A DNA stretch of 29,672 nt, from the NCBI GenBank assembly GCA_031406255.1, contig JANOGZ010001263.1, forward strand, positions 1 through 29,672, given 5' to 3'. Below the pieces are notes generated by a model, which saw only the letters and a program-made list of their open reading frames with translations, was not told the DNA's origin and searched no databases. A program made the translations under genes and the position numbers. The stretch is from Pyrinomonadaceae bacterium. GTDB taxonomy: Bacteria > Acidobacteriota > Blastocatellia > Pyrinomonadales > Pyrinomonadaceae. Positions 4,899 through 22,718 of the stretch are shown here, piece by piece; the stretch's first letter is position 1; each line of letters starts with the position of its first letter.

Positions 4899-6996
4899 TG
4901 TTCGATGAGGAATAGGGGTTTGAGGCGGTGAAAGAATTGATGCGGTTCTTACCGCGTTTCTTGGCGACGTAGAGAGCCTGATCGGCCGCGCCGATGATAC
5001 TGGCCGGCGTATCGTGTTCGGGCCCGAAGGCTGAAATGCCGATACTGACGGTGACCGCACCGAGCGGCTGGTTTTTTCCGTGCGGATACTGCATGCGCTC
5101 CACGCGCCGCCGAATGCGCTCGGAGATCACCTGTGCTTCGGAAAGATTTGTCTGCGGAAGTAGGATGCTGAATTCCTCGCCGCCGTAGCGCGAGGCGACG
5201 TCCGCCGACCGCAGCGCCGATTTCAAGCACTGCGCCGTCATCTCCAGCGCAAGATCACCCGCCTGATGCCCGTTGCGGTCGTTATAGTGCTTGAAATCGT
5301 CGATATCAACCATCAGGAAGCTCATCGGGAAGCGGTGACGCTTCGATCTCTCCAATTCTTCCGCCAGCCGCTCTTCGAGATAACGCCGGTTAAGCAATCC
5401 GGTCAGCGGATCGGTAATCGAGAGCAGCTGGAATTGCGTGGCCTTCTGGTGCCACTCCGCGCGATCGAGGGCGAGCGCCATCTGCGGCGCAAACATCTCC
5501 AGTAACCCCAGATCAATTTCATCGTAGATGCCGCCGCCGGCCTTATCCGTGACATTCAGGACTCCGACGCGGCGGCCGCCGATCATGATCGGATAGCTGA
5601 TAAACGAACCGGTTTTATAGCTTCGCTCGGCCGGAGCCGGATCGCGCCCCGAGGCGACCATATCACGCACGACCAGCGGTCGGCCTTCGCTGAGCACCGT
5701 GCCCGAGATGCTCTCGCCGAGGCGGGTGCGAGCCTCGCGGGCGGCCTCGGTGCACGGGCCGATCACGGCTTTGACCGCCAGTTCGTTGGCGCTTTCATCG
5801 AACATCTGGAGCGAGCCGCGCTCGGCATGAAGCAACTGCGTCGAGTGTTGCAGGATCGTCGCATAGGCGTCTTCGGGCTCGACCGCGTTGATATGATCCG
5901 TGAAGGCCTGAAGATGAAAGGCCGCGCGCATGCGCTTTTCCAGCTCTTCGCGGAGGCGGAGCACCTCAAACGGAAGCGCCATCTCGCGACAATAATCAGC
6001 GAGCGCCTGTCGCGTCGCGTCGCTTAAAGGAAGATCGCCAACAATCAACGCCCCTTTAACTTCTTCACCGACGATCAGCGGAAACAGCTCGGCGACCTCT
6101 TTCCGCTTCGAGGTCGAGCGGCCCTCCAAGGGCACTATGACCGATCCACCCTGCTTGACCGCCTGGAGCAAATTATTGTTTTTCGTATCGATCGCGATCC
6201 GCGGCGGGTTGGCAACGAACTTTCCCGTCGCGCAGGAACTGGTGGTGATGAACTCCTCGTCATTACGCAACATCAAGACGAGCGAATCGAGCCTGTGGGC
6301 TTCCGCTAGTGAACGGACGGCAGCGCTGCATACTTCTTTGAAAGTAGTGCCGGGAGGAAAGTAAGAAGAGTTGGGAGGGAAACCGGCTTTCGCCATACTG
6401 GTGGTGCTCGGCGTCGCAGGCACGCCCGCCGCCGCACCCGGTGGCCCCGTCGGCGTCGATTCGCCCGCCGGGCGCGCGGCAACCTCGGCCGCGGCTTGAG
6501 CGATGCGTGTCGCCAGATCGTCGAGGTCTTGAGGGGCGGCGAAGATCACGTTGCGGAACAGGTCAGCGGAGAGCAGTTCGCTGAGATCACCGCTGCGGAC
6601 GCGCTCGGCCAGCGCACGATAATCCGCGCTGTGGAGAAAAGCTCGTCCCCCGATCACAGCCAGGGGGCGTCCTTTCAGCAATCCGACGGGCTGCGTGAAG
6701 CAATTGAGTCCGGCGTGGCAGCGGTAACGCGTTGTGGTACCGGCGCTCATGGCGCGCGCATGGGCTTCTCCGCAGTAGGGATCACAGAGGTGCGCATGTG
6801 TCGGAGATGTTTGAAAAGCGTGGCAGATGGAATTGTTATTCGAGATGGCGAGCTCGGGCGGCTGATGCCCGTCGATCAGCAGAATGGCGAGATCGGTCGC
6901 CGAGGACAGCGATTCCTGCGCCTCCCACCATCCGGAGGGGACTTCCAGTCCGTCTGATTGGATCACGGTTCGCTGTGGGGCAGCAGCTTTATCCAT
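4876..6996 (-). CDS. Diguanylate cyclase with PocR-like sensor and GAF domain(s)
   Basis: TDPLTGLLNRR, DIDDFKHYNDRNGH, RYGGEEF with an intact RxxD I-site (RSAD). The N-terminus has a Cys/His PocR-like pattern (ICHAF..LCDPYC..YRCHAGL). The start could instead be the ATG at 7047. Confidence 0.92.
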   Translation of the reverse strand: MDKAAAPQRTVIQSDGLEVPSGWWEAQESLSSATDLAILLIDGHQPPELAISNNNSICHAFQTSPTHAHLCDPYCGEAHARAMSAGTTTRYRCHAGLNCFTQPVGLLKGRPLAVIGGRAFLHSADYRALAERVRSGDLSELLSADLFRNVIFAAPQDLDDLATRIAQAAAEVAARPAGESTPTGPPGAAAGVPATPSTTSMAKAGFPPNSSYFPPGTTFKEVCSAAVRSLAEAHRLDSLVLMLRNDEEFITTSSCATGKFVANPPRIAIDTKNNNLLQAVKQGGSVIVPLEGRSTSKRKEVAELFPLIVGEEVKGALIVGDLPLSDATRQALADYCREMALPFEVLRLREELEKRMRAAFHLQAFTDHINAVEPEDAYATILQHSTQLLHAERGSLQMFDESANELAVKAVIGPCTEAAREARTRLGESISGTVLSEGRPLVVRDMVASGRDPAPAERSYKTGSFISYPIMIGGRRVGVLNVTDKAGGGIYDEIDLGLLEMFAPQMALALDRAEWHQKATQFQLLSITDPLTGLLNRRYLEERLAEELERSKRHRFPMSFLMVDIDDFKHYNDRNGHQAGDLALEMTAQCLKSALRSADVASRYGGEEFSILLPQTNLSEAQVISERIRRRVERMQYPHGKNQPLGAVTVSIGISAFGPEHDTPASIIGAADQALYVAKKRGKNRINSFTASNPYSSSNNADREAT

Positions 6997-7276: not shown

Positions 7277-8431
<1,155 letters not shown>

Positions 8432-8434
8432 CCG

Positions 8435-9520
8435 TTAGTTTCCCGTGTGCTTGGGCGGCAGCGCCGTCGGCAAAGGCGCGCCGGGCGCCCCGGCGCTGCC
8501 GGCAGTGCGCTCATCACGCTCGTGGCACGATATCCCGTAAACTTCTTCAGCAAAATGGCAGAGCGAATGGTGATCCGGAGTCAGTTCGACGAAGGGGGGA
8601 AATTCTCGCCGGCAGATATCTTCGGCGCGCTCGCAGCGCGGCGCGAAGGGGCAGCCCGCGGGAAGGTGCGCAACATCCGGCGGCAGACCCGGTATCTGGT
8701 ACAGCGCGCCCTGCTCGGCGGTCGGGTCCGGCACAGACCGCAGTAACCCTTTGGTGTAGGGATTACCGGGGCAGGAGAAGAGTTCATCGGTCGGAGCCTG
8801 CTCGAAAACTTTTCCGGCGTACATCACGATGATGTGGTCGGTCATTCCGGCGACGACGCCTAGGTCATGCGTAATCAGGATCACGCTCGTGCCCGTCTCT
8901 CGCTTCAACTCTTTGATCAGCTCGAGAATTTGCGCCTGAATCGTCACGTCGAGCGCGGTCGTCGGCTCGTCGGCGATGAGCAGTTCCGGCTCGCACGACA
9001 GGGCCATCGCGATCATCACGCGCTGCCGCATCCCGCCCGAGAATTCATGCGGATAGCTATCGGCCCGCGTCGCGGCGTCGGGGATACCGACCATTTCAAG
9101 CATCTTGATGGCATGCCCATACGCCTGATCTTTCGTGTGGCCGAGATGCAGCTGCGTGATTTCCATCAGCTGCTTCGAGATCCGCATGAAGGGATTGAGC
9201 GACGTCATCGGGTCCTGGAAGATCATCGCGATTCGCTTGCCGCGGATGCGGCGCACCTCGGTCGGGGTCAGGTCGAGGATGTCCTGCCCGTCGAAGAGCA
9301 CTTCGCCGGAAACGATCTTTCCCGGAGGCTCCGGGATCAGACGCAGCACCGAGAGGTTTGTCACCGACTTGCCCGAACCCGACTCCCCGACGATGCCGAG
9401 CGTTTCGCCACGCTTGAGGTCGAAACTAATGCCGTCGACGGCTCTGACCGTGCCATCCTCGGTCTCGAAATACGTGCGGAGGTCTCTGACTGAAAGAAGA
9501 TTTCCGTCGCGGCTGCTCAT
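8435..9520 (-). CDS. oppD: Oligopeptide ABC transporter ATP-binding protein
   Basis: [30 protein letters not shown] and the C-terminal Cys cluster [10 protein letters not shown]. Confidence 0.93.
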
Positions 9521-9593
9521 GGGCTTACTCGTCCCTCGCTATGTTGATCTTTCGTTCGATGAAATATCCCTCCGGAGCGGCTCGCGGGTGGCC

Positions 9594-10679
9594 TTAAAAC
9601 TTTCGCATCTGCGGATCGAGCGCGTCGCGCAACCCGTCGCCGAGGAAATTCAGCGAGAAGAGCGTCAGCGCCATCGTGACGCCCGGAAAAATCAGTTGCC
9701 AGGGGAAGATCGCGATGTTTTGAATACCCTCGGCGGCCAGGCTCCCCCAGGACGCGAGCGGGGCCTGCACGCCGAGACCGAGAAATGAGAGAAAAGATTC
9801 CTGCAGCATCACGGAGGGGATCGTGAGCGTCGCGTACACGATGACGGGGCCGAGCGTATTCGGCACGATATGCTTGAAGATGATTTTGGCGGTCGAAACG
9901 CCGCCAGCCCGCGCCGCCAGCACGAATTCCTGATTCTTGAGCGAGATCACCTGCCCGCGAACGATGCGCGCCATCGTCAGCCACGAAACGGCTCCGAGGG
10001 CGATGAACAGCAGGAACAATTGACCGAGCGGCGTCTGCCCGCCGAACATCGCCAGCAGCACGATGACGATCATCATGTAGGGGATGGCATAGAGCACGTC
10101 GACGATCCGCATCATCACATCATCGACACGTCCTCCGAGATAACCGGCCGTCGCGCCGTAAGTGATACCGATGATGAGCGAAACGATCGTCGAGATGATG
10201 CCGACCATGAGCGAGATGCGGCCGCCTAAGAGCACGCGCGCCAGAATATCGCGGCCCGCGCTATCCGTCCCCATCGGATGCAACCACGAGAACGAACCGT
10301 CAGGCGCTGTAAAGGGCCCAAAGGATCTGATCAGATTGGAATCTTCCGGAATGTAATCGTAGGTGTAGCCGGTGGTATTGCGAATGATCGGCGGCCCGAC
10401 GAGCGACGCGAGGATAATGATGGCGACCACGATCATCCCGAAAACCGCCAGCTTGTTCTTCAGTAACCGCCGCCACGCGTCCTTCCAGAGAGACGTGCCG
10501 GAGACGGTATCCGTGCCGAGGTCAACCGAGCGCACGTCGCCTTCGCCGACGGCGAGTTCGGGCGCGGTGTGAATCATGTCGCCCGCGCGCGCGCGCACCG
10601 GCGGCGCCGGCGGCGTGCCGAGCGGCGTCAGCGCCGGCTCGGCCTGTTCAGTTTGCGCAAGAGGTCGTTCGTCCTTCAT
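9594..10679 (-). CDS. oppC: Oligopeptide ABC transporter permease
   Basis: LWKDAWRRLLKNKLA, HPMGTDSAGRDIL, EFVLAARAGG (EAA-like loop) and GDGLRDALDP. Confidence 0.93.
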   Translation of the reverse strand: MKDERPLAQTEQAEPALTPLGTPPAPPVRARAGDMIHTAPELAVGEGDVRSVDLGTDTVSGTSLWKDAWRRLLKNKLAVFGMIVVAIIILASLVGPPIIRNTTGYTYDYIPEDSNLIRSFGPFTAPDGSFSWLHPMGTDSAGRDILARVLLGGRISLMVGIISTIVSLIIGITYGATAGYLGGRVDDVMMRIVDVLYAIPYMMIVIVLLAMFGGQTPLGQLFLLFIALGAVSWLTMARIVRGQVISLKNQEFVLAARAGGVSTAKIIFKHIVPNTLGPVIVYATLTIPSVMLQESFLSFLGLGVQAPLASWGSLAAEGIQNIAIFPWQLIFPGVTMALTLFSLNFLGDGLRDALDPQMRKF

Positions 10680-10684
10680 GGTTT

Positions 10685-11605
10685 TTAGTACCGTATGCGT
10701 GGGTCGATGTAAGCGTAGGCCATGTCAACCAGAAAGTTGAAGAGCAAAATCAGGATCGAGATGAAAGCGACGATGCCGATGATCAGCGGTTCATCGCGGT
10801 TCAGATTCGCGTTGATGAAGTAGTTTCCGAGCCCCGGCAGCGCGAAGATTCTCTCGACGACGACCGTTCCGGTCACGAGAAAAGCCAGCGCCGGGCCGGT
10901 GAATGAAACGACCGGAAGCAAACCGCCGCGCAGCGCGTGCCGCATGACGACCTGCCGCTCCCGCAAACCCTTCGCGCGGGCCGTCCGGATATAATCGGCG
11001 CGCAGCACCTCGAGCATTCCGGAACGCGTCAGGCGCGCGATATAAGCCATGTAGATCGCCGAGAGCGTGATCACCGGCATCACCAGATTCCAGCTCGGGA
11101 AACCATTCCAGCGCGCCGGGGGCAGCCAGTACAAGGTCAGCGAAAAGATGAGCACGAGGATCGGTCCGAGCACGAAATTAGGAAGCGAGATGCCGAGCAT
11201 CGCCAGCGCCATCGAGGCGTAATCCAGGCGCGAGTTTTGCTTCAGCGCGGCCAGTGTCCCGGCGATGACGCCGACGGCCAGCGCCAGCAGGTATGCCATG
11301 ATCCCCAGCGTCGCTGAAATAGGAAGGGTGCGCGCCAGGATGCGGAGGACGGATTGCCCCTCATACTTCAGCGATGTGCCGAAATCACCGCGCAGGACGT
11401 TGCCGATCATCCGGCCGTACTGCACATACCACGGCTTATCGAGCCCGTATTTCTCGCGCAGGTTTTTTTCGATGGCGGGCGGGAGCTTTTTCTCGGACGT
11501 GTAGAAATTGCCGGGCGCGAGCCTGATCAAGCCCCACGTGAGGCTGATGACGATCAACATCATTGGCACAATGACGATCAAACGTCGGATGGCGAATCGA
11601 AACAT
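10685..11605 (-). CDS. oppB: Oligopeptide ABC transporter permease
   Basis: YGLDKP, GDFGTS, DYIRTARAKGL and YAYIDPRIRY. Confidence 0.93.
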   Translation of the reverse strand: MFRFAIRRLIVIVPMMLIVISLTWGLIRLAPGNFYTSEKKLPPAIEKNLREKYGLDKPWYVQYGRMIGNVLRGDFGTSLKYEGQSVLRILARTLPISATLGIMAYLLALAVGVIAGTLAALKQNSRLDYASMALAMLGISLPNFVLGPILVLIFSLTLYWLPPARWNGFPSWNLVMPVITLSAIYMAYIARLTRSGMLEVLRADYIRTARAKGLRERQVVMRHALRGGLLPVVSFTGPALAFLVTGTVVVERIFALPGLGNYFINANLNRDEPLIIGIVAFISILILLFNFLVDMAYAYIDPRIRY

Positions 11606-11620
11606 CGGCTTTCTTCCTCG

Positions 11621-13666
11621 CTAATCGGCCGTTTTGAGTAAATCGTTGACGCTCGGGAAATCGGTCGTCTTCGGGAGACCCCGATCCCACTTCGCGGCAT
11701 CGTGCTCGATGTAGACGAATTTCCACGCGTGGAGCGTCTGCGGATTCGGATACAAACCCTTCACATAAGGCTTCTTCACCCAGTTGGTGGCGTTCGTGTA
11801 GAGCGGAAGGATCGGCTGCGCATCGAGCAGGATGGCCTCGGCCCTGGCCAGCAATTCGTACCGCTTCTGTGGATCGAGCGTGCGGTTGGCCTCGTCCAGC
11901 ATCGCGACGTATTTCGGATCCGTCCACCCCGTGCCGTTGTCACCCTCGAGAGTGGTGAACAGATTGAGGAAGGTAAACGGGTCCATGTAATCGCCTACCC
12001 ACGCGCCGCGGATCGTCCCCTTGTATTCGAGCTTGGAACGATAGTTGAGAAACGTCTTCCACTCCATATTCTTGAGCGGGATCGTAATCCCCAGATTCTG
12101 CTTCCACTGCGCCTGCAGAAACTCGGCGATCTGTTTGTTTCGCTCCTGCGTGTTGTAGGTGTATTCCACATCCTTGATCGGAAATTTCTTCGGATCGTAA
12201 TTTCCGCTGGCGTCGCGGTATCCGGCCTCGGCGAGAAGTTTTTTCGCTTTTTCCGGATCAAAGGGATCGCCCTTCGGCTGCGGATAATTGGGGAAAATAC
12301 CTTCCGGAGTGAAGGCCGTCAGCGGCTTCACGACCCTCTGGTAGTCGGCAAGCGCCACCTTATCAATCGCCATATTGAAAGCCTTGCGTACGCGCTTGTC
12401 ATTCATCGGCGGCTTCGTCGTGTTGATCATGACATACGTGGTCGCCACTTCCGGCGCATCCATGTAGTCTTTCAGCGGACGGATCAGGTCGACCCAGCTG
12501 GTTGGAACCGTGTGGTTGAGAACCCCATCAACCTCGCCCGCCTTGTAGAGATTCATCATCGTCGTTGAATCTTCGAGCGGATAAAAGTTGATCTGATCGA
12601 GCTTGACGTTGGCGGCATCCCAGTACATCGGATCGCGCACCACGATCAACTCATTGTAGGGCCGCCACGTTTGCAGCTTGAACGGGCCGCTCGTCACGAT
12701 GTTGGCCGGCTCGGTCCAGGCCACTCCGTGTTTTTCGATCGCTTTACGCGGCACCAGACGGAAAAGCTGATACGGAAGCAGACCGATGAAGAAAGGCGCC
12801 GGCTGGGTGAGCGTCAGTCGCAGGGTGTAGTCATCGATGGCCTCGACGCCCATATCTTCAGCCTTCACGGGGACGAACTCTTTGCCCTCGACGGCCGCTT
12901 TGAGCTTCGGATTCGCCTCGATCGCCGTGGCGCGCTTTTTCTCGTCGCTCGGCAGCACGAGTCGCGCCGGCGATTGCATGAAGCGGTTAAACGGCGTATC
13001 GAGCGACGGATTTTGTCCGGTCGCGGGGAGTTCCGGCGAGTGTGGTGTAGCTATTGCGGGCGTCGCGCTCGGCGGCTCTTGTTGCGGCGGCGGTGGTTGC
13101 AGCGCCGGGGCGGCCCCGGCCTTCTCCGTTTCAGCCTTCACATCCCTTTCCAGCACATATTGGCCGGTGCGCGCGTCGCGCACGAAGACGTCTTTCTCGT
13201 TGTAGCTTTGCGCGTATTTAATGTAATAGGCGAGATAGGCGGAGCGCGCCGCGAGTTCGGGCGAGAGACCGCGCCGGAAGGTATAGACGAAGTCCTGTGC
13301 GGTGATCGGCTCGCCATTCGACCAGCGCGCATTCTTCCTGAGGTGGAAGACGAATCCGGACGAGTCGGAGTTGGTCTCCCAGCGCTCGGCGACCGCCGGT
13401 ATCGCCTCCATCGTCACCGGATGATATTCGACCAGGCCGTCATACAGAGCCATGTAGATGCGCGCTTCGGGCTGGCCGGTGCTGACCTGCGGGTCGAGCG
13501 ATTCGGGCTCGGAGCCGGAAACGTAGCGCAGGATCTGGCCCTCGGGCGGCTCGGTCTTGCCAAAATACTCGGCATTGCTCGCCTGACTGGTGCAGGCGGT
13601 GGCGAGCAATGAAAGCGTCACGAGAACCACGCCTAGTTGGAACCAACGGGCACGAATATTAATCAT
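11621..13666 (-). CDS. oppA: Oligopeptide ABC transporter substrate-binding lipoprotein
   Basis: Lipobox LATAC, EPESLDP, RWSNGEPITAQDF, VTSGPF and RGAWVGDY. RBS GGAG precedes the ATG. Confidence 0.92.
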   Translation of the reverse strand: MINIRARWFQLGVVLVTLSLLATACTSQASNAEYFGKTEPPEGQILRYVSGSEPESLDPQVSTGQPEARIYMALYDGLVEYHPVTMEAIPAVAERWETNSDSSGFVFHLRKNARWSNGEPITAQDFVYTFRRGLSPELAARSAYLAYYIKYAQSYNEKDVFVRDARTGQYVLERDVKAETEKAGAAPALQPPPPQQEPPSATPAIATPHSPELPATGQNPSLDTPFNRFMQSPARLVLPSDEKKRATAIEANPKLKAAVEGKEFVPVKAEDMGVEAIDDYTLRLTLTQPAPFFIGLLPYQLFRLVPRKAIEKHGVAWTEPANIVTSGPFKLQTWRPYNELIVVRDPMYWDAANVKLDQINFYPLEDSTTMMNLYKAGEVDGVLNHTVPTSWVDLIRPLKDYMDAPEVATTYVMINTTKPPMNDKRVRKAFNMAIDKVALADYQRVVKPLTAFTPEGIFPNYPQPKGDPFDPEKAKKLLAEAGYRDASGNYDPKKFPIKDVEYTYNTQERNKQIAEFLQAQWKQNLGITIPLKNMEWKTFLNYRSKLEYKGTIRGAWVGDYMDPFTFLNLFTTLEGDNGTGWTDPKYVAMLDEANRTLDPQKRYELLARAEAILLDAQPILPLYTNATNWVKKPYVKGLYPNPQTLHAWKFVYIEHDAAKWDRGLPKTTDFPSVNDLLKTAD

Positions 13667-14007
13667 CGCCTTTTACTCCGGTACTTCTGGTTAACCCGAC
13701 ATTATCGCCGCTTCGGCAAACCGTCGGGAAGGTGACGCGGGGAAATCTGATCAAGCCCCATATGCTGGGTTCGGGGGAACAATTTGGTTAAAGTTACTTC
13801 GGCGGACGGGGGAGCACGAACAAGACCGCGACCTACCAGTCTTAAGCATTCAGGGGCTGGCCTCACGTTATCATGCGTCCGCTTTCCCAATCAAGATGTA
13901 CTGCGCCGCGACGGGGTTAAACTCAACGATGCTCAGAGCGGAACATCTCGTTGCTTCCGGCGCGGCAGATTTCAAGCCGGATATTTACTCGCTACGTTCG
14001 ATCCGGA

Positions 14008-15927
14008 TCACTCGGCCTGCTTCGGCGGTTTCCAGGACGTATCTATCCGCACGCGTTTTAACGAAGGCGCATCCAGCAGATTGGCGTCAAAGCCGCTGAC
14101 ATAGGGCTTTACGAGCGCGTAGGAGGAAGCGAAATAGACGGGGATGGCCGGCAGCTCCAGCAGCGCCTGCTCTTCAGTGAGGATTTGTCGAGGCGCCGAG
14201 ATGTCAGCCGTTTGCTGCACTTCGGTCGCTCCGGACTGCGCCTCTCGCACCACTGGGGAAGGTTCGGCTGTCGCCTCCGGCGATGCTTCGCCGAGCTCTC
14301 CCACATCCTCCCCGGAGGTCCTGGCCGGCTGATCGAATATGGCCAAAATGGTCGCCTCCTCATCCATTGTTTGCATCACCACGCTGCGCCGCGCCAGATC
14401 ATAATCACCGGCACGCAGCGCCGCTTCATAATCATCCCAGCCGCGCATGTCCACATCCGTCTCCACCCCGAGAGCAGTGCGCCACATCTCGGCGACCGCC
14501 AGCGCCACGGTGCGGTGCTGTTCATTGCGATTAATGAGCAGACGTATGCGCGGGAAATTTGCCCCGCCGGGAAATCCCGCCTCGGACAGCAGACGCCGGG
14601 CTCTTTCCACATCATGCACGAGAGCGTGCGCGGTTCGCTTTCTCGCACCCGTGGTTTGATCGCCCGTTGACGGCACCGGGATAAACCTTCGCGCCGGTTC
14701 TGTTATGCCCTCCATCGTATCGGCGCTCAAACGATCGCGATCGAGCGCGATGGTGAGCGCTTCACGCACACGCCGGTCAGTGAACGGAGCACGCGTCATA
14801 TTAAAACTATAGTAAGTCAGCGCACCATACGTGACACGGCGAAAATCCTTGTATGGAGCCAGCAGTTTGAGCGCCAGCGGCTCGAAAGCGGCGTTGGTCA
14901 CCGCGTCCACAGCGCCCCCACGATAAGCGGCGAGCGCCTCTTCCGCATCACGCGCCGCGACAAAACGGACACGATCCAGCGCCACCGCCTTGCTGTCCCA
15001 GTAGTTTCCGTCGCGTTCCAGCACGACCCCGTCGGATGCCCGATCGGTAAGCCGAAAGGCGCCGTTTGAGACAACACCCGGCGCTGGTTGCTCCTCTGGG
15101 CCATGCCCCCCGCTCCCTTCGCTTGAAGAAACATCAGCATCGTTTTTCGTGCTCAGCTCATGCACGGGACGAAAGACCGGATGGGCCACCAGCGCCGGGA
15201 AATTTCGGTCAGGCCGCTGCAGGCGAACACGAAGGACGTGTTGACCGACGGCTTCGGCGCCGAATGTGGCTCCGCCGTCGGGCGGCGTGAGAGATTCTTT
15301 CGCTTGCGGCTTGGCCGGCGGAGAAACGCTTCCGCTCTCCTGCTGCTGCTGTTCGGGCGCGGGCGGCGCGTCCGCGGAAAATTCTTTACTCTCACCTCTT
15401 CTGCGCGCGCCTTCGATGTTTTCTAAAAGGCGCGCGTGCGGCGCGCGTTCGCCGAGCTGCCTGATGCGTTGCCACGAGCGCACGAAATCCTGCGCCGTGA
15501 CCGGGTCACCGTTCGACCAGCGCGCATCCGGACGAAGATAAAACGTCCAGTGGCGTCCATCCGGCGAGGATTCCCAGCGGGTCGCCACCGCCGAGACGGG
15601 GGCCAGATTGCGCGGGTCATAATCGGTCAGCCCTTCAAACATCGCGCGCACGACATCAGTGTCGGGCGGAGCCGCCGCCAGCGCCGGATCAAAGATTCGC
15701 GGCAATCCTCCATCACTCCAGCGAAACTCCTGCGCGCGCCGAGGCGTCACCACACGCCCGTAGTAGGGCTCCACCTCCTCCGACATGAAACATCCGCCGC
15801 CCATCACCGCAATAATCAACACTGTTATGAGCGCGACGCGTAACCACCTGGCGGACGAATCGAGACGACGTACGGAAACGGCGCGACTGCCATCGGTGGG
15901 CCTAGTTGTCGCTGTCGGTCGCATCAT
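14008..15927 (-). CDS. Second, divergent OppA-family substrate-binding lipoprotein
   Basis: Hydrophobic stretch then GGGC lipobox, FDPALA, RWSNGDPVTAQDF, VSNGAF and DRRVREAL. The start is uncertain (15927, or 15960 as in the ORF track). Confidence 0.85.
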   Translation of the reverse strand: MMRPTATTRPTDGSRAVSVRRLDSSARWLRVALITVLIIAVMGGGCFMSEEVEPYYGRVVTPRRAQEFRWSDGGLPRIFDPALAAAPPDTDVVRAMFEGLTDYDPRNLAPVSAVATRWESSPDGRHWTFYLRPDARWSNGDPVTAQDFVRSWQRIRQLGERAPHARLLENIEGARRRGESKEFSADAPPAPEQQQQESGSVSPPAKPQAKESLTPPDGGATFGAEAVGQHVLRVRLQRPDRNFPALVAHPVFRPVHELSTKNDADVSSSEGSGGHGPEEQPAPGVVSNGAFRLTDRASDGVVLERDGNYWDSKAVALDRVRFVAARDAEEALAAYRGGAVDAVTNAAFEPLALKLLAPYKDFRRVTYGALTYYSFNMTRAPFTDRRVREALTIALDRDRLSADTMEGITEPARRFIPVPSTGDQTTGARKRTAHALVHDVERARRLLSEAGFPGGANFPRIRLLINRNEQHRTVALAVAEMWRTALGVETDVDMRGWDDYEAALRAGDYDLARRSVVMQTMDEEATILAIFDQPARTSGEDVGELGEASPEATAEPSPVVREAQSGATEVQQTADISAPRQILTEEQALLELPAIPVYFASSYALVKPYVSGFDANLLDAPSLKRVRIDTSWKPPKQAE

Positions 15928-16018
15928 CTTAAATCGAATATTTTCCCGTCCCGTGTACATTCTCGAAATATTACTGCCGTCTCCTGAAAGGTGCGCGGCT
16001 CGTCATGAGCGCTCGGTC

Positions 16019-17844: not shown

Positions 17845-18261
17845 TCAGGTGAACTTGACGGAAGTCGGCGTATCGCTGGTGTAGGCCGTGATCTCCGGCT
17901 CATCGAGAAACCGCTCGACGGTCAGGACCAGATCTTTGATCCCGCCCGGTTTTTTCAAAAATTCGTTGACGCCGGCGGCGCGCGCCTCGCGCTCGCAGTC
18001 GCTCGCCGTGAACATAATGATGGGAGTATCGCGCCGCTGCGACAATTCGCGCGCGCGACACAGGAGTTCTACTCCGCCCACACCGGGAAGCTCAAAGTCG
18101 AGGACGATGATGTCGTAATGCTCCGCGCTCTCGAGCTTCTTTAACGCGGCTATCCCATCGCGGCAGACGTCGACCTGCCAGCCTTCGAGTTCAAATAATT
18201 GCTTGACGGTGAAGAGTACCAGATCGTAGTCCTCAACATACAGGATTTTGATCTGCTGCAA
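17845..18261 (-). CDS. Stand-alone receiver-domain (CheY-like) response regulator
   Basis: ILYVED, IIVLDFELPG (phospho-Asp), IIMFTA and FLKKP are all intact, with no output domain. The start is uncertain: TTG at 18261 with an upstream GAAGG, or GTG at 18333. Confidence 0.85.
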   Translation of the reverse strand: MQQIKILYVEDYDLVLFTVKQLFELEGWQVDVCRDGIAALKKLESAEHYDIIVLDFELPGVGGVELLCRARELSQRRDTPIIMFTASDCEREARAAGVNEFLKKPGGIKDLVLTVERFLDEPEITAYTSDTPTSVKFT

Positions 18262-18348
18262 TGTTTTGTGCTGCCCTTCAGGAATGTGAGATATGACGCA
18301 TACCGCGTCCGAACTTAAACGGTGCAAGAACACTTCTATCTCACAAAC

Positions 18349-18364
18349 AGCAATTACCGTTCCC
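18349..18364 (-). promoter_or_regulatory. Candidate sigma54 (-24/-12) promoter upstream of the receiver gene
   Basis: Minus strand reads GGGAACGGTAATTGCT against the consensus TGGCACG-N4-TTGCW. GG-N10-GC spacing is exact, and ACG and TTGCT match. Confidence 0.6.
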
Positions 18365-18647: not shown

Positions 18648-20963
18648 TCACTGTCCGGCTTGCTTGGTTTTATGAAGGGCGTTACGCTCGCGGTGCTTTT
18701 CGCCACGGATAATGCTGACGCGGCGTCGTTGCGGGGGTCGCCTCGCGTCGCGCAGCTCTTTATGGCGGCCGTTCAGAATAAAAGACAGTCCCTGATGGGT
18801 AATACCGAGGAGTCGCGCGGCGCGCGTCAGTTGCCCGTCGGCGACTTCCAGCGCGGAGCGAATCAGGTTTGCCTCGAAGCGCAAAACTTCTTCGTCGAGC
18901 GAGCACCCGGCCCACGGACTCGCAAAGCCGGAGGTCTGGACCTGGCGGAGGGCGAGAGTTTCCACGGCCGCCGCGGGAATTTCAGTGTTATCCGCTGCCG
19001 TCAGGAAAGTGCGCTCGATGAGGGTGCGCAGTTCACGCGCGTTGCCCGCCAAATGCAGCCGCTGCATCGCATCGAGGCACGCCGGCGCAAAGGTCACTTG
19101 TTTGTGATACTGCCGCTCAGCCTGCGCGATGAAGTGGCGGGCGATGGCTGGAATGTCCTCGGTGCGTTGCCGGAGGGGCGGAAGCTCAATGATAAATGCG
19201 CTCAGTCGATAGTAGAGATCAGGGCTGTAGTGCCCGCGCGCCATATCCTGTTTAAGATTATGGTTCGTCGCCGCGATGATCCGTATATCCACCTGCTCCG
19301 AAGCCGAAGCGCCCAGCGAAGTCACCTCACCATATTCGATCAATCGCAAGAGCTTGGCCTGCGCTGCGGCGCTTAGCTCACCCACCTCATCGAGGAACAA
19401 TGTGCCGCCGACGGCGCCGCGCACCACTCCCGTATGATCGCCGACCGCATCGGTGAAGCTGCCCTTCCGGTGGCCGAACAATTGCGACTCAATGAGCGTT
19501 TCGCACAACGCCGCGCAATTGATCGCCACAAACCGTCCGGCGCGCCCGCTCCATTCATGCATCAGTCGCGCCAGCACTTCCTTGCCCGAGCCCGTCTCGC
19601 CGGTGATCAATGCCGGCCGGTCAGTGATGGCGACCGCCCGCGCATAGTGAAGAACGGCGGTGGTCTTCTCCGAGGCATGCACAAAAGCGGATACTTCGGA
19701 CGCCTTTCCCGAAGCCGATGACGTATCGAGCGCGATGATGCGCCGCGCGCACGCGCGCAGTCGCGCGAGCGTTTCCCCATGCCGTGAGTCGGTCAGAAGG
19801 CGGTCCGCGCGTTCGTAGGTTTTTCGCAACTCATCGGCGGCGAGCCACCCGTCTAGTTCCTCAATCAACGTCAGTGTCGCCCTGCCCGCACCCTCGATAT
19901 CGCCCGCCGTCTCCGCCATATCGACGGCACGTTCGAGCGTCGCCTGCGCTTGCTGATGACGATTCAATCTCGCCAGCGCGACCGCATAGGTCGTCAGAGC
20001 TTCGGCCAGAAGGGCTTGTTCGCCGCCCTTCTCCAGGCTATTGACCGCCCCGCGGGCAGCTTTTTCAGCCGCGGAGTTGCGCCCTTCCACCAGCAGAACA
20101 CGGGCTCGTGTTTCATCAACCTGCGCGGCACTACCCTTATCCTTGAGGCCGATGAACAGACGATGGGCTCTTTCTAAATGCTCTTCCGCATCGCTTAGCT
20201 GTCCGACTCTCAAAAGCAGATAACCGATATTATTCTCTACGCGGGCACGGTATCGCGTATGGCCAGCCTGTTCGAAGTGATAACTCGCCGCCGCGTATTC
20301 GATCAGCGCCTGATCGGTATACTCGCTTCGCGCCTCGGCGACCCCGAGCGTCTCCAACGTATTGCCGAGCGAGTTATGAAATTTGCCTTTGAGGGCGCAA
20401 CTGGTACTCGCTTCAAACAGTGGAGAGGCCTCGGTCAGTAACCGTAGCGCGTCATTCAAGCGGTTGTTTGACATCTCGATGATCGAGCTGCGTAACAAAA
20501 TCAGCGCTTTGAGTTCACTCTCATCGTCGCCAGTTTGCCCTAACGCATCGCGTAGAATAATGCGCGCCTCGTCAAACGCGCCCTCACGCCAGTAGCACAA
20601 CGCCAGGTCGCTTCGTGCCTCGATAGTTTTTGCCGTCTCGCTGAGCGTTTCGTAGATCGTCAGGCTCTCGCTGATCAAGTCCTTGGCGATCTCCTGTGCG
20701 CCTTCAATCTGCCGCGCGCTGCCGATCCATCCCGAGAGCGCCCCCACACGCAGCAGCACTTCAGCCCCGGTCCGCTCATCCAGATCGCCGAGCGCGGGAC
20801 GCTCACCGACACGCGTCCACAAGTCACCCAGCGCATTTCGCGCCGCTTCGTAGCTCCCGGCTTCTTCGAATTCGCGGGCGAGCGCACAACGAAATCGCAC
20901 GCGCTCGCTATAATTACACGCCGGGTTATCGATGCGTTGTATTAATTGGGCAACTAAGTTCAT
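18648..20963 (-). CDS. TPR-repeat, sigma54-interaction-type AAA+ transcriptional regulator with Fis-type HTH
   Basis: About 420 aa of helical TPR-like repeats ([16 protein letters not shown]), then [46 protein letters not shown] and the [16 protein letters not shown]. No receiver domain. Confidence 0.9.
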
Positions 20964-21056
20964 GTGAGGATTAGCTTTCTACCTTTTAGCAAGGTTGTTT
21001 GCGAAATAGCGATTTTTCTTCTCAATGGTGTTATTATCTCCCCGCTCAGCCCCAAA

Positions 21057-21092
21057 AGTTGGTTTACTGCGCGGTAACAAACCAACTATACT
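21057..21092 (+). promoter_or_regulatory. Inverted-repeat operator overlapping a sigma70-like promoter of the small peptide gene
   Basis: AGTTGGTTT-N13-AAACCAACT (21057-21087) overlaps TTTACT-N18-TATACT (21063-21092). Confidence 0.45.
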
Positions 21093-21120
21093 TGATCTTC
21101 ATATCCACGGGAGAAAAACG

Positions 21121-21333
21121 ATGAAACCGTTACGACAGCTCTGCGCCGTCGTTTTACTGACGACGATTTTTGTCCTTCCCGTCTTTGCCGAGGATGGACA
21201 GATGCCGACGCCCACGACCCCACCACAAGTGATCGTCATCCAGCCGCCACCGACGGGTGGTGATCCGGGCGAAGTGGATTCGGTGATGCAGGCTCTTCTG
21301 AACATCTTGCATGGCGTAATATTTTTTGTCTAG
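21121..21333 (+). CDS. Small secreted peptide precursor (70 aa): signal peptide + Pro/Thr-rich segment + hydrophobic C-terminal helix
   Basis: RBS GGGAGA lies 6 nt before the ATG at 21121. The sequence is MKPLRQLCAVVLLTTIFVLPVFA (basic n-region, h-region, VFA cleavage site) followed by EDGQMPTPTTPPQVIVIQPPPTGGDPGEVDSVMQALLNILHGVIFFV. Confidence 0.75.
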   Translation: MKPLRQLCAVVLLTTIFVLPVFAEDGQMPTPTTPPQVIVIQPPPTGGDPGEVDSVMQALLNILHGVIFFV

Positions 21334-21785
21334 GCGATTAATGCCCTTGCCCCGGGGCCCGACTTCTCGTTCTTTTGTTACCTCGTTGACGGCTTGATTT
21401 GAAATGCGTATGCCGGTAACGCCGCTGAGTCTCGGGGAAGGATACATCCAGCAGGTGCGATCGTTTATAGCTTCCCTGACGCGATGACACTGGAGGCATT
21501 GGATTTTTGTGTCATCGCGCCCCGGTCGCTAGCCACTGCTATTCAAGAACCCCGAGCAACGGATGAATCCTATCCTTACTTCCGCGCGAAAATCAACATT
21601 TTCCGAGCCTGGAGGCTTAACCCGTGTTTCCTGAAGATCACCGCCGGGCGCGCCCGCGCCTGTCGGCGCAGGATCCGTCAGCTCAAGAAGCTGGCACTGT
21701 CATGCCAGCCGCGACGGCTGGTCAGGGTTGCATCGTCACTGATTGTTGGCGCAAGATGCGGCGCATGATTCATCAAGCGCGGCGA

Positions 21786-22718
21786 ATGTACATACATAAA
21801 AGTCATCATATCGGAGTGGTGGTGTTAAGTGTCGCGTACGTGTGCGCCGGGTTGACGGCCTGTACCGGCGTCCTGCGCACGCGTGGCTCCGCCGGCCCCG
21901 TGCAGCGTTATGAGCTGACGGGCAAGGTCGTTTCCGTTGATAAAGCCGGACGCAAACTTGTCATTGCGCATGAGGAGGTGCCGGGGCTGATGGAAGCCAT
22001 GACGATGCCCTTCACGCTCAAAGCCGAGTGGGCTTTTGACGCCGTCGGTGAGGGTGATCGCGTACAGGCAACGCTCGTCGTGGCCGATGACAGTTCATGG
22101 CTCGAGAATCCGGTAATCACCAAAGCCAGCGGGGCAGACAGTGGAACCGCCGGCGACGCGGACGGGGCGACACCCGCGCCGGGCGCCGAAGTCATGGATT
22201 TTTCGCTCGTCAATCAGGATGGAAAACCCATTCGGTTGCGCGGGTATCGCGGGCAGGCGCTACTGATCACATTTATTTACACGCGCTGTCCGCTGCCGGA
22301 CTACTGCACGCTCATGAGCACAAACTTTGCCGGGATCGAACGGGAGTTGCAAAATGATCCGGCGCTGCGCGACAAGACACATCTCCTCAGCGTGAGCATC
22401 GATCCCGCGCATGACACGCCCAAAGTCCTGCGCAGTTATGGGGCGGCGCACACCGAGAGATACGACCGGGAAAATTTCAAGCACTGGGAGTTCGCCACCG
22501 GCGCCCCCGGGGAAATACAGCGCATGGCGCGGTTTTTCGGCCTGACTTACTACAGCGAAAAAGACCAGATAGTTCATTCGCTGCGCACCGCTCTCGTCGC
22601 GCCTGACGGGCGTCTCGCCAAAATCTATCACGGCAATGAATGGAAGCCCTCAGAGGTCGTCGGGGAGCTGCGGAAACTGTTCGGTGAAAACGGGCACCCC
22701 GCTGAAGCGCACAAATAA
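21786..22718 (+). CDS. CusF-like copper-binding domain fused to SCO1/SenC domain, lipoprotein
   Basis: Lipobox LTAC, CusF-like HEEVPGLMEAMTMPF, and SCO motifs FSLVNQDG, FIYTRCPLPDYC and IVHS. The start is uncertain (ATG at 21756, 21765 or 21786). Confidence 0.85.
   Translation: MYIHKSHHIGVVVLSVAYVCAGLTACTGVLRTRGSAGPVQRYELTGKVVSVDKAGRKLVIAHEEVPGLMEAMTMPFTLKAEWAFDAVGEGDRVQATLVVADDSSWLENPVITKASGADSGTAGDADGATPAPGAEVMDFSLVNQDGKPIRLRGYRGQALLITFIYTRCPLPDYCTLMSTNFAGIERELQNDPALRDKTHLLSVSIDPAHDTPKVLRSYGAAHTERYDRENFKHWEFATGAPGEIQRMARFFGLTYYSEKDQIVHSLRTALVAPDGRLAKIYHGNEWKPSEVVGELRKLFGENGHPAEAHK

Follow-up and report, generated by a model that had tools for sequence, protein, structure and literature searches.

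Introduction

Peptide signalling through cytoplasmic receptors of the tetratricopeptide repeat (TPR) type is textbook knowledge for Gram-positive Bacillota and the phages that infect them; in diderm bacteria, signalling is generally attributed to small molecules. We describe a locus from a Pyrinomonadaceae bacterium (contig JANOGZ010001263.1 of assembly GCA_031406255.1, positions 1 to 29,672; this whole 29,672-nucleotide stretch is hereafter called the window), in which P0001, a gene for a small protein, lies divergent from the gene of a TPR-containing regulator. We put the probability of a two-gene signal-receptor module, in which P0001 supplies the exported pro-peptide, at roughly 0.6, a reading based mainly on covariation between a seven-residue motif of the small protein and the TPR domain of its neighbour.

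The closest described systems are those of the RRNPP(A) group (Rap-Phr, NprR-NprX, PlcR-PapR, Rgg-SHP, PrgX and AimR-AimP), which are found in Bacillota, phages and plasmids and with which the locus shares a cytoplasmic TPR-type receptor and a small exported pro-peptide gene beside the receptor gene. As in Rgg-SHP, the two genes are divergent with a palindrome between them, and, as in RRNPP systems at large, a genome holds numerous paralogous pairs that each have a peptide of their own and in which peptide and receptor residues change together. Rap-Phr pro-peptides can hold several putative pheromone copies (PMC11343458), as members of the family described below do with their heptads.

The locus differs from RRNPP systems in its host, a diderm acidobacterium, and in its output, which is a sigma-54-type AAA+ domain plus a Fis-type helix-turn-helix (HTH), or the HTH alone in short paralogues. 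Moreover, the candidate ligand would be N-terminal in the mature pro-peptide, whereas the RRNPP ligand is C-terminal, the conserved amphipathic C-terminal helix has no counterpart there, and secretion, processing and re-import are putative here. With regard to homology, the regulator matched only generic TPR families in Pfam and no RRNPP-specific family in Pfam or NCBIfam, a PDB sequence search with it returned no RRNPP chain at E ≤ 1, and a Foldseek search with its TPR domain placed LGN/Pins proteins best and Rap receptors only at ranks 37 and 44. What is found is RRNPP-like logic with no detectable homology, on which membership of that group depends.

The TPR domains of LGN/Pins (GPSM2) were the best structural matches (Foldseek E-values from 8e-10 to 2e-8, TM-score by target ≤0.74). 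LGN/Pins form superhelices of eight repeats, on whose concave face a peptide (NuMA, Inscuteable or Frmpd) is held in extended form by helix-A residues, Asn among them. They differ from the regulator in being eukaryotic cell-polarity proteins (14–18% identity) that have no DNA-binding or AAA+ domain and whose ligands are segments of large proteins. On the output side, the regulator resembles the enhancer-binding proteins NtrC, NifA and PspF in its PF00158 AAA+ domain with a C-terminal HTH_8, in the presence of rpoN and in a -24/-12-type site before a neighbouring receiver gene. It departs from them in its input, where a TPR array of 420 residues takes the place of a receiver, GAF, PAS or V4R domain, in its GSFTDA loop, in the loss of the AAA+ domain from sister regulators and in a small gene that has no sigma-54 promoter. 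Pairs of this kind have so far been described in Gram-positive bacteria only, and full-text searches yielded no published description of them in Acidobacteria or other diderms.

Results

P0001 is a conserved gene with the features of an exported protein

The following features, all on the forward strand, make up the small-protein gene.

21109-21114, forward: ribosome-binding site GGGAGA, 6 nt before the ATG, with GGAG kept in homologues
21121-21333, forward: small-protein gene P0001, 70 amino acids plus stop (translation, family profile matches, purifying selection, conserved ribosome-binding site)
21121-21189, forward: signal peptide MKPLRQLCAVVLLTTIFVLPVFA of the Sec/signal peptidase I type, residues 1-23 (read by rule; AlphaFold2 helix 2-23)
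21196-21216, forward: heptad GQMPTPT, residues 26-32, preceded by E24-D25; predicted specificity-bearing core (motif enrichment, TPR covariation)
21217-21276, forward: Pro-rich disordered linker, residues 33-52 (no secondary structure in AlphaFold2; predicted local distance difference test score, pLDDT, 52-62)
21277-21330, forward: C-terminal amphipathic helix DSVMQALLNILHGVIFFV, residues 53-70, the end of the protein (AlphaFold2 helix 49-69, hydrophobic moment)

Signal peptides were judged by rule (n-region, h-region, small residues at -3 and -1). By this rule, P0001 has a basic n-region with K2 and R5, a 15-residue hydrophobic core AVVLLTTIFVLPV and the residues V-F-A before the cut, with E following it. 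The AlphaFold2 model, based on a 73-sequence alignment, placed helices at residues 2-23 and 49-69 and left residues 24-48 unstructured (mean pLDDT 67). The tripartite anatomy proposed in the initial annotation, namely signal peptide, Pro-rich core and C-terminal helix, was borne out by both translation and model. That annotation had also called the C-terminal helix hydrophobic; amphipathic describes it better, as the hydrophobic moment of the tail was 0.39–0.40 versus 0.04 in the signal-peptide core. The tail is an amphipathic helix and not a membrane span, because it comprises only 16–18 residues and these include the polar Q, N and H.

As the initial annotation had warned, the gene is easily mis-started, since an upstream ATG is available at position 21025. 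GGAG was invariant at the same distance from the ATG in all 24 aligned homologous leaders, every homologue starts with MK/MR-x-L at the position equivalent to 21121, and the ATG at 21025 sits within the conserved promoter region. The start is therefore 21121, in agreement with the existing public gene call of 70 amino acids.

No Pfam or NCBIfam family matched P0001. When compared with C-terminal sorting signals (PEP-CTERM and similar), its tail had no basic cluster and no full transmembrane helix, and the NCBIfam scan gave no sorting-domain match either. The protein ends in IFFV, most family members in LSLF; the final F is present in 83% of members and is V here. P0001 is a functional, conserved coding gene with the features of an exported protein, and not noise.

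P0001 belongs to a large family of unannotated small proteins

A direct sequence search with P0001 alone found a single relative, P0002, with 68% identity, and the family emerged only through profiles; the weak six-frame matches in related genomes were all small open reading frames (ORFs) of P0001-like layout. A hidden Markov model (HMM) of small ORFs beside homologous regulators, an approach suggested in the initial annotation, recovered a huge family. In a library of 1.8 billion proteins, 3075 clusters at 50% identity matched the family profile, 942 of them at E ≤ 1e-10, and nearly all were 70–110 amino acids long. The named relatives were all called 'hypothetical protein', and one source gave a member the automatic label 'putative hemolysin'. 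Among Pyrinomonadaceae genomes, 50 of 61 had matches, with up to 12 per genome; matches were few elsewhere in the class Blastocatellia, and none were found in the 19 genomes of one genus. These genome tallies take in three genomes flagged as unpublished (G017, G032 and G182), from which no sequence was used and on which none of the conclusions rests.

The homologues are under purifying selection, whose absence the initial annotation had listed among the findings that would refute its reading. The pooled ratio of nonsynonymous to synonymous substitutions (dN/dS; 20 pairs, not mutually independent) was 0.23 in the signal peptide, 0.38 in the middle and 0.13 in the tail. A value of 0.56 from the single close homologue was based on 24 substitutions and was dropped in favour of the pooled pairs as resting on too few changes. 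In line with its low dN/dS, the tail also showed low column entropy, and no other segment of the family is as conserved or as constrained.

In most members, the signal peptide ends in SAFA before a Gly, and the mature N-terminus reads G-[DEQ]-[IM]-x-x-[PG]-x. This heptad begins at +1 after the AFA cut in most members and its Gly is invariant; it is followed in most of them by a PPPP-rich linker, one to three further heptad copies and a conserved (L)DPVTEAALSLLQSLLSLF-type helix at the end. The strict motif G[DEQ][IM]xxxx occurred 406 times in 217 family proteins versus 13.6 ± 3.7 times when the mature parts were shuffled. Heptad positions 4, 5 and 7 were hypervariable across the family, and the combination at positions 4 and 5 was the same in 25% of pairs of copies within one protein, compared with 3.2% of pairs from different proteins; none of 2000 permutations reached the within-protein figure. 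The (E)DGQMxTP form of P0001 recurs in a small sub-clade (L003, L007 and L012).

Three loci, L132 (G166:C17:43500-50500), L133 and L134, carried two to three tandem small genes together with one short TPR-HTH regulator. The tails of this tandem-gene subfamily were more hydrophobic and ended in TVLLTIISIVAR, VG or VVK, with a basic residue or Gly as the last one.

An ice metatranscriptome (run X13) contained a 176-nt contig of a close relative that spans 21080-21249 and is about 96% identical to the window. This variant carried an in-frame GAT insertion at 21192/21193, which changes AED-GQM to AEDD-GQM, as well as K2R and L12A.

The small gene is linked to a TPR regulator

The regulator and the part of it that is relevant here are encoded on the reverse strand.

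18648-20963, reverse: divergent regulator of 771 amino acids with TPR, sigma-54-interaction AAA+ and Fis-type HTH domains (Pfam PF00158 at 2e-56, TPR families, HTH_8)
20130-20612, reverse: TPR segment, residues 118-278, containing the heptad-covarying residues L122, L154, M164, N197, S198, E204, R241 and S278 (covariation)

In Pfam, the TPR array was assigned to TPR_12, TPR_8 and TPR_1, and AlphaFold2 modelled the regulator with an all-helical TPR superhelix (pLDDT 92.7) and no membrane segment. The L1 loop of its AAA+ domain reads GSFTDA instead of GAFTGA, and many paralogues have A, K, M, V, I or P in place of the Thr.

We gathered 80 loci with the N-terminal 420 residues of the regulator as the sole anchor. 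The small-protein HMM matched the divergent ORF directly upstream of the regulator in 68 of these loci and nowhere else in them. Two of the remaining 12 have no upstream DNA, and most of the others adjoin genes for CstA, alanyl-tRNA synthetase or PadR. The regulators had either the long form seen in the window (TPR, sigma-54 AAA+ and HTH_8) or a shortened one (e.g., TPR and HTH); in about 40% of the loci the AAA+ domain was partly or wholly missing, with TPR, HTH and small gene retained. Across the regulator family, the sigma-54 machinery has been lost stepwise.

In one genome with ten paralogues, each had its own regulator, and both heptads and tails differed. The genome of the window contains a second module, whose small protein (G000:C532:8630-8788, reverse strand) reads AGEMNTPR and has a tail in ILINYLMLMF; its partner is a divergent regulator paralogue that is cut by the contig end (C532:9038-9463, forward strand).

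The first heptad covaries with the TPR domain of the adjacent regulator

Covariation was measured as mutual information with average product correction in 82 non-redundant pairs of small protein and TPR domain, where 20 signal-peptide, 7 heptad and 12 tail columns were compared with 267 variable TPR columns. All 20 strongest column pairs involved the first heptad (0.27–1.23), and for six heptad columns the best pair reached 0.43–1.23. None of the signal-peptide or tail columns rose above 0.27, despite the same phylogeny.

The residues concerned fell into chemically readable combinations. At heptad position 2 and TPR residue 204, D went with K in 41 of 42 pairs, E with R in 15 of 17 and Q with E in 10 of 12. 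At position 3, I was combined with A or C at residue 241 and H at residue 278, and M with R and S at the same two residues. Position 4 showed H with E198 and D or E with R164. At position 5 versus residue 197, T went with N (32 of 34) and F or Y with G (8 of 10). For position 6 and residue 122, P was accompanied by I, L, V or T (50 of 52), G by Y or W (18 of 19) and T by H; finally, G at position 7 was accompanied by R at residue 154.

As a phylogenetic control, independent pairs were counted on a tree built without the covarying columns. The combinations D/K (10 pairs in agreement versus 0 opposed; p = 0.002), E/R (7.4 versus 0; p = 0.008) and G with Y/W (6.9 versus 0; p = 0.016) all held, and the smaller residue classes pointed in the same direction with low power. 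Furthermore, 30 pairs that were fetched later obeyed the code at position 2 (18/22), position 6 (22/22), position 5 (17/19) and position 3 versus residue 278 (19/27). The window pair obeys it as well (Q2 with E204, M3 with R241 and S278, T5 with N197, P6 with L122), as do P0002 and its adjoining partial regulator. The first copy of the heptad fitted better than later ones, with 91% versus 53% agreement at position 2.

In the AlphaFold2 model, the covarying TPR residues occupy alternate helices, namely 110-126, 149-165, 189-210, 236-252 and 276-292. The alternate 'A' helices of TPR arrays line the concave groove. The order is antiparallel, with heptad positions 6–7 matched to early repeats and positions 2–3 to later ones. 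Taken from these alignments, the heptad, with its GQMPTP core, appears to co-evolve with the groove of the adjacent regulator's TPR domain through chemically complementary residues.

With their tails, the small proteins recall the short hydrophobic pheromones known from streptococci and enterococci, and the initial annotation had allowed that the tail itself might be the active part. This was not borne out: it is the GQMPTP core that tracks the regulator, and the tail was rejected as the specificity element because its columns (≤0.27) lack TPR covariation. Its conservation would fit a role as a shared pro-domain or in handling, for instance as a tether for a second cleavage, a function which the initial annotation had also considered.

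Proposed mechanism and points against it

In the module that we propose, P0001 would be exported and cut by signal peptidase; once E24-D25, peculiar to copies such as this one, had been trimmed off, a short peptide from the N-terminus with the heptad would be set free. The peptide would then re-enter the cytoplasm, with the Opp-type ABC importer encoded in the window at 7277-15960 as a candidate route, and would be bound in extended form along the TPR groove of the 18648-20963 regulator. The bound regulator may alter transcription of the peptide gene via the GCAA-N6-TTGC repeat beside the extended -10 element, and, by way of its AAA+ domain, it may also drive the receiver gene downstream from a putative sigma-54 promoter. 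As for the conserved C-terminal helix, it would act as a shared pro-domain in membrane association, processing or release, and not as the ligand.

A more general proposal goes with this mechanism, to which we give slightly less than even odds: the Pyrinomonadaceae, and less widely other Blastocatellia, may have independently evolved cytoplasmic peptide-pheromone receptors, with up to 12 orthogonal channels per genome, a residue code and either sigma-54 or HTH-only output. If true, peptide quorum sensing of the RRNPP style would exist in a diderm phylum, with specificity that can be predicted from sequence by means of the code. The lineage, which is very abundant in soil and barely cultured, carries thousands of unannotated peptide-regulator pairs. 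The sequences themselves show the receptor residue to which a given peptide residue corresponds, and, if the proposal is confirmed, signalling channels might become readable from metagenomes. Sigma-54 activators would gain a new type of input domain, and synthetic biology a source of orthogonal peptide-receptor pairs.

Several points weigh against the signal-receptor module. We infer secretion, cleavage, peptide release, re-import and binding alike from sequence, and the diderm outer membrane has to be crossed twice by the peptide. No dedicated exporter, protease or importer was linked to the module in 66 loci, and the Opp genes, 5–14 kb away, may be coincidental. The tail, the most conserved part, is given only a guessed role in the model. 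The output side is uncertain, because there is no sigma-54 promoter at the small gene and the GSFTDA loop is degenerate. P0001 itself is atypical, with E-D before the Gly, a single heptad and a tail ending in V, and within other proteins later heptad copies often break the code. The evidence for transcription is weak, because the metatranscriptomic contig comes from a relative and DNA carry-over is possible. Finally, covariation reflects a shared constraint and not the place or time of contact, so that a precursor that has not been exported could be what the regulator meets.

Alternative explanations

The last of these points leads to the main rival, in which the TPR regulator reads the heptad while it is still part of a precursor awaiting export, or in molecules whose export fails, and reports the state of secretion or serves autoregulation, with no signal passing between cells. 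This reading keeps heptad recognition, which is what the covariation gives, and leaves its location free; it is helped by the cytoplasmic regulator, modelled with no membrane segment, by the lack of linked export, processing and import genes in the 66 loci and by an outer membrane that bars re-entry. Nevertheless, the position of the heptad at +1 after the AFA cut and its invariant Gly suggest that a free N-terminus matters, the N-terminal copy obeys the code better than internal copies do, and the 5–12 distinct pairs per genome resemble orthogonal channels and are hard to explain for a secretion monitor. We regard intracellular recognition as unlikely, albeit the strongest competitor of the signal-receptor module.

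A further unlikely possibility is that the small protein acts as an effector on the envelope or a membrane, working through its amphipathic tail (surface-active, membrane-binding or antagonistic) and that the regulator responds to something else. The constraint on the tail (dN/dS 0.13, low column entropy), its amphipathic character, the terminal F in 83% of members, the subfamily with more hydrophobic tails ending in R or K and the automatic label 'putative hemolysin' of one member would all suit such a function. Yet an effector leaves the complementary heptad-TPR covariation unexplained, where the tail columns are silent; a regulator for each small gene, repeated across the genome, is unusual for effectors, and no immunity or transporter genes were linked. 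The effector and signal readings are compatible, and the tail may have a function of its own.

That P0001 is the precursor of a ribosomally synthesized and post-translationally modified peptide (RiPP), with the repeated heptads as cores that dedicated enzymes modify and excise, is very improbable. Several near-identical short units per precursor and a follower-like conserved C-terminus recall such precursors, but a Sec signal peptide is atypical of them. Moreover, the initial annotation was right that no RiPP-modifying enzymes are adjacent: the neighbours of P0001 in the window (regulator, CusF-SCO1, ETF and Opp genes) include no modifying enzyme, protease or transporter dedicated to it, and none was conserved in the 66 loci, where the neighbours were CstA, BMC, receiver and AraC-type genes. 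Lastly, a chance ORF or mis-annotated leader of the downstream CusF-SCO1 gene, which the short length, the lack of Pfam and NCBIfam matches and the single close homologue in direct searches might have suggested, is refuted by family size and selection, given relatives of matching length and layout that profiles detect in their thousands, purifying selection, a conserved ribosome-binding site and an in-frame indel in a natural variant, and by a CusF-SCO1 neighbour that is not kept beside relatives.

Control region of the divergent genes

Three features surround the small gene.

20989-21002, no strand: operator-like inverted repeat GCAAGGTTGTTTGC (GCAA-N6-TTGC) between the divergent genes, recurring in most loci
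21029-21037, forward: putative extended -10-like element TGTTATTAT (from conservation)
21353-21379, forward: terminator-like hairpin and T-rich run after the small-gene stop (consensus scan)

A GCAA-N5-7-TTGC repeat was found at the same position beside the regulator start in most loci. Homologous loci also shared TGnTAnnAT followed by GCGCCCG, 75–95 nt before the small-gene ATG, and the conserved order was regulator start, inverted repeat, extended -10-like element, leader of 75–95 nt, GGAG and ATG. In the window, transcription would be predicted to begin near 21044. The leader had no conserved structure (RNAalifold consensus of -1.4 kcal/mol with 4 pairs), and Rfam gave no match in this region of the window.

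Other promoter candidates were rejected. A sigma-70 site from the consensus scan, TTTACT-18-TATACT (21063-21092), was not conserved in homologous loci, where the conserved -10-like element lies further upstream. With regard to sigma-54, there was no consistent GG-N10-GC before the small gene in 70 loci, and in the TGGTAC..TATCA element of one clade both the invariant GG and the invariant GC are missing.

At 21057-21087 lies a perfect inverted repeat of 9 bp, AGTTGGTTT..AAACCAACT, which was not conserved in homologous leaders. With the -10 element at 21029-21037, this repeat would lie in the 5' leader, possibly as a hairpin, and not over a -35 box.

Nearly all family genes (L051-L130, e.g., L056:2010-2089, reverse strand) carried, about 25–95 nt past the stop codon, an element of the form GCTGCCGTGA-loop-TCACGCGCGGC, followed by GGTATTAGTGTGTC and then TCGCCGGAAA. 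Its stem showed compensatory variants such as CGCAG/CTGCG, and the element had neither a T-run nor a match in Rfam. It could serve as a terminator of unusual type, in RNA processing or in protein binding. Downstream of 21333 in the window, P0001 is without this element.

Neighbouring genes

Three further features of the window flank the pair.

17845-18333, reverse: single-domain receiver gene downstream of the regulator (Pfam Response_reg, 1.5e-18)
18349-18364, reverse: sigma-54-type promoter-like site GGGAACGGTAATTGCT before the receiver gene (GG-N10-GC type)
21624-22718, forward: fusion of a CusF-like copper-binding domain and SCO1/SenC with an N-terminal membrane segment, downstream of the small gene

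A receiver homologue followed the regulator in 33 of the 80 loci. The -24/-12-type site before it was present in 10 of 11 long-type loci, whereas scores were at chance level in 22 short-type loci; equivalent sites were located in L056, L059, L063, L065, L070, L072, L076, L100 and L115, and rpoN is present in the genome. A link to copper handling, for which Met, His or Cys in some heptads and the CusF-SCO1 gene downstream had been considered, was rejected, as this neighbour was absent from all other loci tested.

In 19 of 66 loci (e.g., L058:1-2043, reverse strand), a gene for CstA (PF02554, a carbon-starvation peptide/pyruvate transporter) directly followed the small gene on the same strand, and in L095, L097 and L103, which have no small gene, CstA itself was divergent from the regulator. 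CstA could be under the control of the regulator, or it could serve in peptide import. Two Acido-Lenti-1 matches (RF01687; 51 and 34 bits) were located downstream of a regulator paralogue, at L083:5828-5875 (reverse strand) and 5983-6031 (forward strand).

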